From Candidatus Helarchaeota ASGARD archaeon Hel_GB_B (GTDB taxonomy: Archaea > Asgardarchaeota > Lokiarchaeia > Helarchaeales > HEL-GB-B): DNA of 32,000 nt. Location of the stretch: NCBI GenBank assembly GCA_005191425.1, contig SUPR01000012.1, forward strand, positions 1 to 32,000, read 5' to 3'. Numbering within the stretch: position 1 is the first letter of the stretch; each line of letters opens with the position of its first letter. The position numbers were made by a program, and so were the translations under genes. Positions 162 to 23,949 of this stretch are shown here, in pieces. The notes under the pieces were generated by a model. The model ran no database searches and was not told where the DNA came from. It saw only the letters and a program-made list of their open reading frames with translations.

Positions 162-1115
162 TCATTGAGCATAAATATCATAATAAATTCCAGACCGTTT
201 ATCTTCCCAAGTAATAATTGCACCACCAGCGTTATCGCTAGTAAGTTGTGGGAAATCTTGGTCGTCTATTGCATTACATATTATAACTCCATTTTGTGTC
301 CACTGAACCACTCCGTTCAAGGATATTTTTTGTGTATAGATATTTTTGTTTGTAGCATTTCTAGAATTTGCCCAGATAATAATAAAATCATCATTACTTT
401 TTATTATTTCAGCGCTACTTTGTTCATTAGTAGCATTACAAATAACAGTACCATTTGATGTCAATAAAGAATTTCCATTTGCATCAATACGTTGTGCATA
501 AATATCGAAATCAACTCCGGATCTATAGTCAACCCAAACAATAACAGCGCCATTTTGTCCATCACTAACGATTTTCGGATAATATTGCCCGTTATCTTTA
601 GAACATATTAAAATTCCTTTAGTAGCCCATTGAACCGCACCTGATGAATTAATTTTTTGTGCATATATATGGGAAAAGGTGCCTCGATCATCATACCATG
701 TTATTATTGCACCTCCTGCTCCATCACTGCATATTTGGGGTTGATGCTGGTCTTCACTACTAGAACATATACATATCCCACCAGAACCCTATAATATATT
801 TCCAGCGGAGTCTACTTTTTGAACAAATATATTATAATCGATGCCATTTCTCTGCTCTTCCCAAACAATAATTGCACCATCGCTACCATCACTTATAATC
901 TGTGGATTGTTCTGTGTCCCATTTTCAGTTGAAACAAGTGTACCATTATTAGTCTATAATGTTTCAAGATATTTATGAATATTTAATGTAATTTCTTTTG
1001 AATAGTATAATGTTGTATTTTTTGGAAATAATGTAATTAATTCAGATAATGTTATTATTAACAAAAAGATACTATAAATGATGAAAATTTTATATTTTAC
1101 TTTTTTTAATTTAGC
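162..1115 (-). pseudogene. Secreted beta-propeller-like repeat protein (five ~55-60 aa repeats), interrupted by two in-frame TAG codons
   Basis: Manual translation: one frame runs from 1115 to the TGA at 162-164. It has a basic plus hydrophobic N-terminus (AKLKKVKYKIFIIYSIFLLIITL) and repeats of W-x-x-NG...Q-x-x-P-x-I-x-SDG-x-GGAII-x-W...DIYAQ. TAG codons occur at 954-956 and 789-791. The nearest ATG (1117-1119) is one base out of frame. ORF 162..464 is only the last two repeats. Confidence 0.8.
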
Positions 1116-1589
1116 TCATTTAATTTAAAATTTATTATATTTTGTCATTAGAATTTGTACCCCCATTTTTTTATGAATTTTTGAAAATATATTAGTAAAA
1201 ATTAGCCAGTTTTATTCTAATCATTACATAAATCTTTTTAAAATCTATTTTAAAAGTATAATTAAACTGTAAATCTCGATTGGTCAATTTATTTATCAAA
1301 TCATTGATTAATAATTTTAATATGAATTAACATAATCGAAATAAAAGAGTTGAAATTTAGTAATTATTTTAAAATTTACTTATTATTATTGAAGTTTTTC
1401 AAGTATTAAAAGTTCTTTATTAAAAAATTTTAATAACGAATAAATTATAAATGAAATTTACAAAATTTTGCTAATCATTTAAATTTCTGAATTAAATTTC
1501 TTGATTGTATTTATAACATTCTAAACAAACTATAAATATTTTAAATTAATTCAATTATTTAAATTTAAAAAATTTAAGAAGGTTATTAA

Positions 1590-2750
1590 ATGGATTTTTC
1601 ATTTTCTGAAGAGCAAAAAATGTTGAGAAAAATAGTCCGTGAATTTGCGGAAAAGAAATTGGCACCGCGAGTAAGAGAATTTGAAGAAAAAGGCATCGAT
1701 TATGACCTTGTAAGAGAATTATATAAATTAGGTGTAATGGGTTTACCCTTACCTGAAAAATATGGTGGTGCTGATGGTAGCTTTTTAGATGCATTGATAG
1801 TAATGGAAGAACTTGCAAGAATTGACCCTGCTTTTACGATGGCAGCAAATGATTCATGGGCAGGGGCTGTAGTAATCCATGCTTTTGGAAAAGTTTCGCA
1901 AAAGAAAAAATTCATTATTCCAAATTTAAAAGGTGAAAAATTCAGTTCATTTGCTACTACCGAAGCTGGAGCTGGAAGTGATATTTTCTCAATGAAAACT
2001 ACAATAGTTCCCGATGGTGATGGTTTTATTGTAAATGGTTCTAAAGCATGGATTACTAATGCAAATGTGGCAGATTATTATATAATTTGGGGTTATACTG
2101 ATAAAAAAAAGAGGGCAAGAGGAATTACCACAGCAATTCTGGAAAAAGGAATGGATGGGTTCACATTTGGTAAAAAAGAGGAACTATGTGGATTTAGAGC
2201 TAGTTATACAGGTTCCTTATTTTTTGATAATGTTAGAATACCTAAAGAAAATATTATTGGAAAATTAGGTGATGGACTTTTACATTTAATGACTTTATTA
2301 GACTCAGGAAGAGTTGCAATGGCATCTATAGCTAATGGTATTTCTCAAGCCGCTTTTGAAACTGTGCTAAATTATGTAAAAGAACGAAAACAATTTAATA
2401 GACCACTCGCCGATTTTCAATGGATAAGAATGACATTGGCAGATATGTGGACAGAGTTACAAGCAAGTAAATTGCTTTGTTATAAATGCGCAGCACTTGC
2501 AGATATAAATCCAATGGACGAAGAATTAATTAAACTTGCATCATCAGCCAAATATTATTCCAGCGAAACTGCTATGAAAATAACTACAAATGCACTACAG
2601 ATGTGTGGTAGCATTGGTTATTCAAAAGAAATGCTCCTTGAAAAATATTTCCGAGACGCAAAATTTATGGCAATCGGCGAAGGAACAACCCAAATTCAAA
2701 AGATGATACTTGCATCAAGACTAGTTGATTCTAATAAAGTTATTTTATAA
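1590..2750 (+). CDS. Acyl-CoA dehydrogenase (short/branched-chain type)
   Basis: Motifs MDFSFSEEQKMLR, ATTEAGAGSD, NGSKAWITN, GRVAMA, RKQFNRPL and YFRDAKFMAIGEGT (catalytic Glu). Confidence 0.96.
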   Translation: MDFSFSEEQKMLRKIVREFAEKKLAPRVREFEEKGIDYDLVRELYKLGVMGLPLPEKYGGADGSFLDALIVMEELARIDPAFTMAANDSWAGAVVIHAFGKVSQKKKFIIPNLKGEKFSSFATTEAGAGSDIFSMKTTIVPDGDGFIVNGSKAWITNANVADYYIIWGYTDKKKRARGITTAILEKGMDGFTFGKKEELCGFRASYTGSLFFDNVRIPKENIIGKLGDGLLHLMTLLDSGRVAMASIANGISQAAFETVLNYVKERKQFNRPLADFQWIRMTLADMWTELQASKLLCYKCAALADINPMDEELIKLASSAKYYSSETAMKITTNALQMCGSIGYSKEMLLEKYFRDAKFMAIGEGTTQIQKMILASRLVDSNKVIL

Positions 2751-2969
2751 TTTTTTTATATTAATTATGAACATTTTTTAATTTGTAGACGATTAAACCT
2801 CTTTTATAAACAGAAAATAATAGTTTTTTCAATTTAAAATAGTTTAATTATTAAGAATTTGAATGATTTTATTCTTATAGTTTATTATTGCCCAAAACAA
2901 TATTCAATTTTTAAATTAATTGACAAATCCTTAACCTTTTAAATTTATTTTTAAAAAATCTATTTTTAG

Positions 2970-21479: not shown

Positions 21480-22520
21480 TTAAAATTTAATGTTTTTACT
21501 TAATTTTAAAAGAAAAAAAACATCTAATTCAATGTTGGATCTGTGAGATTTTATCCATTTTAATAGGTCATAATAAATTTTTATAGAATTTTTATCAAAT
21601 AAGAGACTATGATTAGCATTTTTATAATAAATTATTTTTTTATCATTAATATTTATTTTATTATACAATAATTTTGCTCCAGAATCATCTAATAAAGTAT
21701 CACTAGTCTCTTGACAAATTAAAATTGGGATTTTGAAGTTTTTTCCACCATTTTCAATGTATTTTTCATTATTTTTAATAGATTGATCAGCAAATTCAAA
21801 GAAATCCTTTTCAAATGTAATAAGTCATGCCGATTATATTCAATAAAAGAAGAAAAATAAGTGGGATTATCAAAATTCTGGGGTATAGAAATTATTGGTT
21901 TATTTAAAATCGGTAAAAAAAGGGAGAATAATAATATTAAAAATGGATTATATTTTAATAATAAATTTATATTGCCGAGGTATTATTCCTGGTGCTAAGG
22001 TAATAATTCCATTAATATTTTCTGGATATTTACAACTATAATTTAATACAATCAATGCTCCAAGATTTTCGCCCATTAAATAGATTGGTAATTTTTGTTT
22101 TACCTTTATTTTTATTATCAATATCTTTAAATCCGAATAAATATCATTGAAATTTTTTAAATTACCTCTGATTTTTCCTTTTCGACCATGGCCCTGTAAA
22201 TCCAAAGCATATAAAATTGTGTTTTTGGCGAATAAATAACAAGCAAGTGGAAAATATAAATCTGAGTGACAGTTTAAGCCAAGTATCATGATAAGAACTC
22301 TTTTAGGGCTTGAGTTTGGCTCCCAATATTTGAAATATACAGGGATATTATCCTTTGATTTAAAATATCCTTCAATTAAATTATCATTAAACTGGTTTCC
22401 AATTATTTCTTTTCTTAAATTTGTTATTCGTTTAAAATAATTAAAAATTTCATGATTTGAAAATTGGTTAAATACTCGATTTTGCGATTGTTTATCTATA
22501 AAATGTTTTGTAAAATTCAC
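21480..22520 (-). pseudogene. Alpha/beta hydrolase (monoacylglycerol lipase/lysophospholipase-like), frameshifted
   Basis: N-terminal part has DLQGHGR..RG and MGENLGA. The middle (KYNPFLILLFSLFLP...HLKRISLNLL) lies in another frame, and the C-terminal part (KIPILICQETSDTLLD...NANHSL) returns to the first frame. The expected GxSxG nucleophile reads GENLG. Confidence 0.85.
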
Positions 22521-22670
22521 ATTAAAATATTATCTTTTATATAAAATAAATTTTATTTGATACTATTTAATCTATTCAATTGTTATTTTTCTTACTTTTA
22601 TATAGAACATCGCATTTCTTATTTAATAAATCACAAAACCATTAAAAATAAAGTGAGGTCATAGAATAGT

Positions 22671-23129
22671 TTAATTTTTAGATTTATCGGCATAAAGTTT
22701 TGCAAGTAAAGCAAATAATACTGCTACTGCGTATTTTGCTGAGATACTATCTATTGCTATAGATAATTGAGCTATCCCATTTATTAAAGCAGTAAAAATA
22801 GGAACTACAAATGCAAATATTCCAACTCCCATTACAATAAAAAGTATCAATTTAGCAATTCAAATTCTATTAAATAGAATCAAAAATGATGAAATGAAAA
22901 TAATACAACCAACGAAATCTGAAATTAATATCATTATAGCAAGAGTATTTGCAATTATTACTTGTGAAATTGGGTCTAATCCTGTAAAATAGTTTTGAAT
23001 AAATTCAAGATACCGTTGACCAAAAATTGGAATATTTGTTATATCCGAAACAAGGAAAATGATTCTTGAAACGAAAGACGCTAGAAATGCTTTAATTCTA
23101 TTCCAAAACCCTAAAACTACTTTACTCAT
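22671..23129 (-). pseudogene. Small multi-pass membrane protein with one in-frame TGA
   Basis: After the TGA at 22860-22862 the frame continues for 62 hydrophobic codons (IAKLILFIVMGVGIFAFVVP...LLAKLYADKSKN) to TAA at 22671-22673. Confidence 0.7.
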
Positions 23130-23949
23130 TTTGAATCATTCTTTTCAAACTTTATAATTACATTCTCATGTTCTGGACTTATCTTATATTTTTTATCTTT
23201 TATAACAGTTTTCTTAAATACTATCCTTTTTTTAGGTAAGATGTAGAAATTCATAATAATAATTAAAATTATATTTAATGGTAAAATATAAAACAAAATA
23301 CTAAATGCTATCCGTAGGGAAAATTCTAATCCAAACGATAAAAATGACAATGCAACAGATAGAATTACAGCCATACCAGTTATACTATTAAATAAAGTTC
23401 CAACTTTAAGCCCTACTTGGAAAATAGCATTTCTTTTACTGTTATAATAGCGAAATCCAGACTAGTCTATTAGTTTTATAGGTGCAATTAATAACGTGCT
23501 TAAAATTGGAAAAATTAAGATTAATCAAAAAAATAGACCGTAAAAATATTAAATGAGATTGAAAAAACTTCTTGAATTAAATTTGCGCCGGTATCAATTA
23601 TAAACATTAAAATAGAAAAAAACAACGCTGTTGGATAGAGTGATTCTCGAAGATAATTTCCTATACTTAAAGGATAGTCATTAGATGTAAAAAAATACAT
23701 TGATTTAGGTCTATTTCTATTCCTATATATTAAATAATGAACAATTAAAATTAATTTTTTTGCAATAAAAACACTAAAAAAATACTATAATAAAATAGAT
23801 AATCCCAATGGAATTAGAAAAAGCTTTAATAAGGAAAAAATGTTTCCATAAAATTCTAGTCCAAAATATCACCCAATAAAGCTTATAATAATATGAATTA
23901 CTGGTAAACATATAGATATAACCATAAGTATTTTAATAGAAGTCTTCAT
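23126..23949 (-). pseudogene. Multi-pass membrane protein gene with 3-4 in-frame stops and one frameshift
   Basis: ATG at 23949: MKTSIK...FIG*(TGA 23869-71)YFG...ILL*(TAG 23785-87)YFF...TVYFF, then a frameshift near 23524-23533, then LILIFP...LID*(TAG 23462-64)SGFRYY..., continuing into ORF 23126..23374. Its TGA stop overlaps the ATG of the next gene. Confidence 0.75.

Follow-up and report, generated by a model that had tools for sequence, protein, structure and literature searches.

Are in-frame stop codons that are always TAG or TGA, and that often stand where tryptophan is expected, the trace of an unusual decoding or editing mechanism, or are they plain mutations in genes that are being lost? 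The question is raised by the stretch of 32,000 nucleotides analysed here (hereafter the window), which is positions 1-32000 of contig C26 (SUPR01000012.1) in the assembly of Candidatus Helarchaeota archaeon Hel_GB_B (G000; 3.54 Mb in 182 contigs, 28% GC, 93.7% complete). A preliminary description of the window reported seven such stops in four otherwise continuous minus-strand genes, and interpreted them either as decay of dispensable genes or as stops conditionally restored by readthrough, a suppressor tRNA or mRNA editing. The first part of that interpretation is upheld by the data presented below: the stops are derived, occur in a single clone only and are accompanied by frameshifts and an insertion, and the ratio of nonsynonymous to synonymous differences (N:S) is relaxed. 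No support was found for the Trp-restoring part, as three of the seven stops are not at Trp codons, none is conserved in strains at 98-99% identity, and neither a pyrrolysine (Pyl) system nor an altered release factor aRF1 was detected in the assembly. It is very likely that the stops are ordinary clone-specific pseudogene mutations, and not signs of readthrough, editing or recoding.

The affected genes, here called A to E, lie in two parts of the window. Genes A and B are covered by L182, a metagenome contig with 97.5% identity to window positions 164-7867. For genes C, D and E, public contigs of four sequencing runs were compared over positions 21300-24100: X1 is a marine sediment run, probably the source sample, represented by Logan contigs at a depth of 3-6x, while X2, X3 and X4 come from hydrothermal vents, belong to three further studies and contain a strain about 2% different from the window; none of the runs listed for this stretch was of RNA. 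One other genome (G001) belongs to the same genus, and the genomes of relatives measure 3-6 Mb. When L240 was taken as the closer sister and L235 as the outgroup, 50 changes appeared window-specific against one, placing L240 within the sister clade; with no true outgroup strain, all strain differences given here are unpolarised.

All seven stops are in frame on the minus strand, as first described, and at every covered site a sense codon was found in all sister strains (at least eight assemblies or runs). The residues replaced are four Trp, two Arg and one Tyr, where the preliminary description had recognised two Trp positions. In gene A, TAG at 954-956 and TAG at 789-791 both derive from TGG, which is present in the sister sequences L182/L238 and L235-237; Trp occupies the equivalent position in 7 of 11 homologous repeats of relatives in the first case and in 39 of 43 in the second. 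The TAG of gene B (3138-3140) derives from TAT, found in L182, L235-238 and L240-243, and eight of nine homologues (53-61% identity) have Tyr there. Two further TAG codons derived from TGG are in gene C, at 23785-23787 (23786 T>C in X2, X3 and X4) and at 23462-23464 (23463 T>C in the same three runs), with TGG at both sites in G001. The TGA at 23869-23871, also in gene C, had been noted for its aromatic context (FIG*YF); it derives from AGA (23871 A>T in X2 and X4; AGA in G001) and is an Arg position. In gene D, TGA at 22860-22862 comes from CGA (22862 A>G in X2, X3 and X4), with Arg in G001, G006 and G004. An additional TGA at 23525, listed earlier as conditional, is not in frame; it is an artefact of the frameshift, since gene C carries a 1-nt deletion at 23523/23524 (minus strand; site 23522-23527), shown by an extra base after 23523 in X2, X3 and X4 and by the nucleotide alignment with G001. 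The lesions are derived, being absent both from close relatives and from distant homologues.

The stops recur letter for letter in several assemblies and thus characterise one clone reproducibly, instead of being the product of an assembler. Ten contigs beyond L182 encode an identical HdrB protein; eight of them are 97.7-99.2% identical to the window and have sense codons, whereas two (ERZ27227322 and GCA_054387055.1) are 100% identical and carry the stops at 789, 954 and 3138. The start of gene C, with TGA 23869 and TAG 23785, is the same as in the window in these two and in ERZ2433807 and ERZ23491052, and the X1 Logan contigs show no difference from the window over 22860, 23462, 23785 and 23869. 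It could be argued that the stops are sequencing or assembly errors of a low-coverage metagenome, given the depth of about 3-6x in the probable source run, a coverage of 1.9 for one matching assembly contig and the possibility that the stop-bearing assemblies share one sample. Such an origin is extremely improbable, as five assemblies made with at least three assemblers (MEGAHIT-style k141, SPAdes-style NODE and Logan), together with two metagenome-assembled genome records, are letter-identical, the lesions are concentrated in five genes, and the break in gene A has a clean 8-bp target duplication. Moreover, random errors would have struck hdrB and hdrC too, yet hdrB differs from the sister strain by no nonsynonymous and five synonymous changes, the hdrC differences are synonymous only, and the HdrB protein is identical across all strains. 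Since random sequencing errors would not spare essential genes, the lesions are better described as sitting in genes under relaxed selection.

Gene A illustrates how far the damage extends beyond the stops. The window contains its 5' half (165-1100, minus strand). In the sister strains the gene encodes a beta-propeller-like surface repeat protein of 614-616 aa with a membrane anchor at the C-terminus, whereas the copy in this clone is a pseudogene. NCBIfam gave only weak beta-propeller-repeat matches for it, and a Pfam search with genes A to D returned no family. The alignment of sister strains with the window ends at 164, and positions 1-163 are the end of a multi-copy repeat or insertion sequence (IS)-like element, inside which the contig starts. 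Another contig carries the 3' half of the gene (C148:135-1041). Comparison of the junctions of L182, C26 and C148 revealed an 8-bp target-site duplication, TGCTCAAT, at 164-171 (minus strand), with its second copy at C148:135-142. The TGA at 162-164 that seems to terminate the gene is not original, because it is created by the junction, from the last T of the TGCTCAAT duplication and the GA of the element. The 160 and 134 nt that flank the break recur at several contig ends, mostly with 98-100% identity; copies of the 160-nt part are identical at the ends of C87 and C33 and 94% identical at C114. A multi-copy element together with an 8-bp duplication is the signature of an insertion, and the element also fragments the assembly. 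The interior of the element, a transposase and inverted repeats were not recovered from the assembly, in which no more than about 140 nt of the tail is common to the internal copies. Heads or tails of the element were seen at window 1-163, at C148:1-134 and at the ends of C33, C87, C114, C120, C111, C95, C35, C110 and C86.

Tracing gene A onto C148 also changes the pattern that raised the question. The statement that none of the stops is TAA holds for these frames within the window, but it fails once the gene is followed to its 3' half, which has CAA>TAA at C148:535. Likewise, the genes are not otherwise continuous, as gene A is truncated at 164 by the inserted repeat and gene C is frameshifted.

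Gene B (2973-3866, minus strand, 298 codons) encodes a distant QueG/reductive dehalogenase (RDH)-like Fe-S protein, for which NCBIfam gave only weak QueG/RDH-like matches. It is intact in eight other assemblies (289-298 aa), and its single nonsense codon, TAG 3138, would cut off the last 55 residues, a Cys cluster among them. In a further genome of the order Helarchaeales, a gene B paralogue (G002:C7:5557-5862) also contains an in-frame TAG, located in the stretch that aligns with residues 150-254. Gene C (23126-23949, minus strand), a membrane protein gene, has three nonsense codons and one frameshift; in G001 it is uninterrupted, with 292 aa from stop to stop and about 278 aa from Met. Gene D (22671-23129, minus strand), for a small membrane protein of 152 codons, has a single nonsense codon and intact homologues in G001, G006 and G004. 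Directly downstream of it, gene E (21480-22520, minus strand), encoding an alpha/beta hydrolase (Hydrolase_4), changes reading frame twice, near 21948 and 21738; compared with the window, the sister strain of X2-X4 has one base extra after 21738 and one missing at 21948. None of the lesions in genes C, D and E is present in that strain. It was also observed that the AGA at 21542-21544 of the window is TGA in X2-X4, and that X2 and X4, at least, have one base more after 21512. This TGA is probably the end of gene E in the sister strains, and in this clone the gene probably runs on for about 20 further codons.

Purifying selection is relaxed in genes A and B. Together they show N:S of 34:25, whereas the ratio for ten intact genes nearby is about 53:99, in unpolarised counts that include the sister branch. 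The acyl-CoA dehydrogenase gene (1590-2750, plus strand), which lies between them and is intact, has N 5 and S 31. The window diverges from the sister strains in a mosaic fashion, with a difference between 164-2900 and 3000-9900: the acyl-CoA dehydrogenase gene has the 31 synonymous differences just given, whereas hdrB, hdrC and their neighbours are only about 0.2-1% different. This mosaic suggests recombination between strains.

Could the stops nevertheless be overcome, so that the genes stay functional? A programmed rescue of UAG and UGA, whether by a suppressor or near-cognate Trp, Gln, Tyr or Arg tRNA, by Pyl, by selenocysteine (Sec) or by A-to-I editing, would account for the four stops of seven that are one G>A step from TGG. 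It would also suit genes B and D, which have no other lesion, and a genome in which some UGA is decoded as Sec, in-frame TGA being aligned to Cys in HdrA- and MvhD-like genes elsewhere. We regard it as very unlikely. A rule that restores Trp cannot cover all the stops, because three are Arg, Arg and Tyr positions, and no other single rule would do so; no stop is present in any sister strain or relative; and the insertion and frameshifts in genes A, C and E are beyond repair by readthrough. The window TGAs align to Arg and not to Cys or Sec.

Among 3654 open reading frames (ORFs) of at least 100 codons, TAA is the terminator in 2442, TGA in 814 (22%) and TAG in 398 (11%), and a long open frame following TAG or TGA is only slightly commoner than one following TAA. 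TGA is a genuine terminator in the ATGA overlaps, as had been noticed before. A search for pyl genes, confined to PylS and PylD (TIGR02367 and TIGR03911), gave only matches of 32.6 and 33.4 bits in this 93.7% complete genome, far below the respective cut-offs of 178 and 150; aRF1 is canonical, with NIKS, YxCxxxF (YYCSSEF) and GGQ motifs. The result for PylS and PylD agrees with the report that Pyl is found only in Sifarchaeia and that Pyl genes are absent from Lokiarchaeia, the class holding Helarchaeales (Sun et al. 2021, PMC9723677). No CUA or UCA anticodon occurs among 16 tRNA genes found with the Rfam tRNA model; since only these 16 are assembled, the absence of a suppressor tRNA is not proven.

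The tRNA genes of this genome are often intron-bearing (89-122 nt) and their complement is far from complete; ARAGORN detects only 6-8. One of its calls, a tRNA-Pyl(cta) at C76:123-216 (minus strand), was rejected as an artefact: it depends on a 2-nt intron and amounts to another way of reading a tRNA that carries an intron. Run without introns, ARAGORN reads the same 94 nt as Pro(tgg), and by eye they form an A1-U72 tRNA in which the anticodon is CUG (Gln) and an intron of 21 nt lies at 37/38. The "remnant tRNA-Pyl" genes of Lokiarchaeia, which were called through Prokka (PMC9723677), might merit a similar check.

In-frame stops were also sought throughout the genome, by means of the genome's own paralogues and of 2.8 Mb of the related, nearly closed genome G005 (C3 and C5), taking the longest ORF per region with strict flanks and filtering out antisense shadow ORFs; TGA aligned to Cys (Sec sites in HdrA- and MvhD-like genes) and genes A-E were left out. 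The remaining 87 non-Sec stops comprise 38 TAA, 25 TGA and 24 TAG, with only 14 aligned to Trp; many of them are in mobile-element relics, and the residue aligned is not in every case ancestral. Alignments with a single stop gave 12 TGA, 9 TAA and 7 TAG. The proportions agree with an empirical neutral model (chi-square p=0.94), and less well with a Hasegawa-Kishino-Yano (HKY) model of kappa 3.4 (p=0.04). TAA is thus as common as the other two, most origins are not Trp and the proportions are those of neutral decay, which is the outcome that the preliminary description had itself set against any rescue.

The paralogue scan detected 77 non-Sec in-frame stops in the 3.54 Mb of this genome (about 22 per Mb) versus 5 in the 2.8 Mb of G005 (about 2 per Mb). 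By this measure, broken genes and relics of mobile elements look unusually plentiful in the clone, and a difference in assembly quality could contribute to the contrast. Should a comparison of whole genomes across strains bear it out, this wealth of broken genes and of repeat or IS copies would have some modest interest for the population genomics of Asgard archaea.

As the four Trp>TAG changes are all C>T on the plus strand, it may be asked whether an episode of plus-strand C>T hypermutation, for example by deamination of single-stranded cytosine, drove the decay. Between 164 and 15005, the unpolarised plus-strand differences from sister to window include 79 C>T against 40 G>A, with 33 and 51 in the reverse classes, and the asymmetry is strongest at 164-3000 (42 C>T against 17 G>A, p=0.0015). 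A plus-strand excess of C>T is an excess of G>A in minus-strand genes, and it may have helped to convert TGG. However, no asymmetry is seen at positions 21300-24100 (12 against 12), a block with two of the four Trp>TAG changes, or in the 3' half of gene A (9 G>A against 13 C>T in coding orientation). As the asymmetry is absent from 21300-24100 and unpolarised elsewhere, hypermutation is not shown. An ordinary replication-strand asymmetry is possible and would look alike, and the frameshifts, the insertion and the two transversion-derived stops need other causes. We therefore consider a hypermutation episode unlikely, although less so than a programmed rescue.

Some observations weigh against reading the stops as ordinary nonsense mutations. 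Apart from the incomplete tRNA set and from the shallow depth (3-6x) and possibly common sample of the stop-bearing assemblies, genes B and D have one lesion each, so that residual function is compatible with their sequence. HKY-type models with the composition of this genome expect TAA to make up 50-59% of new nonsense codons in these genes, and the probability of no TAA among seven is 0.002-0.008 under them and 0.012-0.038 under spectra dominated by GC>AT transitions. Four of the eight stops (counting that of C148) are TGG>TAG and none is TGG>TGA, which is lopsided. The empirical spectrum used below was derived partly from gene A itself, and the chance test is lenient because the spectrum was partly estimated from the same gene. 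Finally, a Fisher p of 0.008 obtained for the N:S contrast rested on counts in which three synonymous hdrB changes were misclassified; the corrected contrast is stronger.

Yet the mutation spectrum makes the pattern less surprising. In the 5' half of gene A, 25 of the 47 differences from sister to window are GC>AT transitions, and so are six of the eight stops, the other two being derived by transversion. A bias of mutation from GC to AT is established as universal (Hershberg and Petrov 2010, PMC2936535). The strain-derived spectrum expects 0.43 TAA, 0.29 TAG and 0.28 TGA, with a Trp-origin share of 0.36. When the TAA of C148 is included, transition-dominated spectra give a probability of 0.05-0.14 for at most one TAA among eight and of 0.14-0.6 for at least four Trp among eight. 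For a pattern chosen after the fact, stops of TAG and TGA only are unremarkable.

With respect to genes B (TAT>TAG) and D (CGA>TGA), there is a very small chance that they remain partly functional through leaky near-cognate readthrough of UAG and UGA. If so, this leakiness would allow the nonsense alleles of the two genes to be maintained in an Asgard population in which some UGA is already read as Sec.

According to the reading we favour, that of ordinary pseudogene mutations, five non-essential genes would have been recently knocked out in one Helarchaeales-type clone. Gene A has acquired two TGG>TAG changes, one CAA>TAA on the other contig and the repeat or IS insertion; gene B, TAT>TAG; gene C, two TGG>TAG, AGA>TGA and the 1-nt deletion; gene D, CGA>TGA; and gene E, two frameshifts. 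An AT-biased, transition-rich spectrum acting on a genome of 28% GC would tend to hit TGG, CAA and CGA codons, the resulting stops would terminate translation as plain nonsense mutations, and the lack of TAA within the window would be a small-sample effect. Judging from their sequences, the genes are probably non-functional and dispensable, with no rescue.

How does this compare with systems in which in-frame stops do carry meaning? Reassignment of a stop codon, such as UGA to Trp in NCBI table 4, would likewise place in-frame stops at Trp positions; here, in contrast, 22% of long ORFs end in TGA and 11% in TAG, aRF1 is canonical and the in-frame stops align to many residues. In filamentous fungi, A-to-I editing of mRNA removes premature stops at sites that are fixed in the species and restored in a developmental stage. 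The likeness is that UAG and UGA are one step from UGG at Trp positions, but the stops of the window are clone-specific, three of them are not at Trp, and they occur alongside frameshifts and an insertion. Recoding of UAG by Pyl and of UGA by Sec is known in Asgard archaea (PMC9723677), and this genome shares the in-frame UAG and UGA and has Sec-type UGA at Cys in HdrA- and MvhD-like genes, whereas the TAGs of the window are at Trp or Tyr, its TGAs are at Arg, and the sister strains share none of them. Without a look at sister strains, TGA or TAG codons that stand in frame at Trp positions should not be taken as evidence of recoding, because such codons were here clone-specific nonsense under GC>AT-biased mutation. 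The closest counterpart is found in the ordinary pseudogenes of prokaryotes (PMC2936535), with which the present case shares derived, lineage-specific lesions, a mixture of lesion types, relaxed N:S and a stop spectrum as expected. Nothing essential sets this case apart: the Asgard host is uncultured, and metagenome assemblies take the place of isolates as the source of the evidence.

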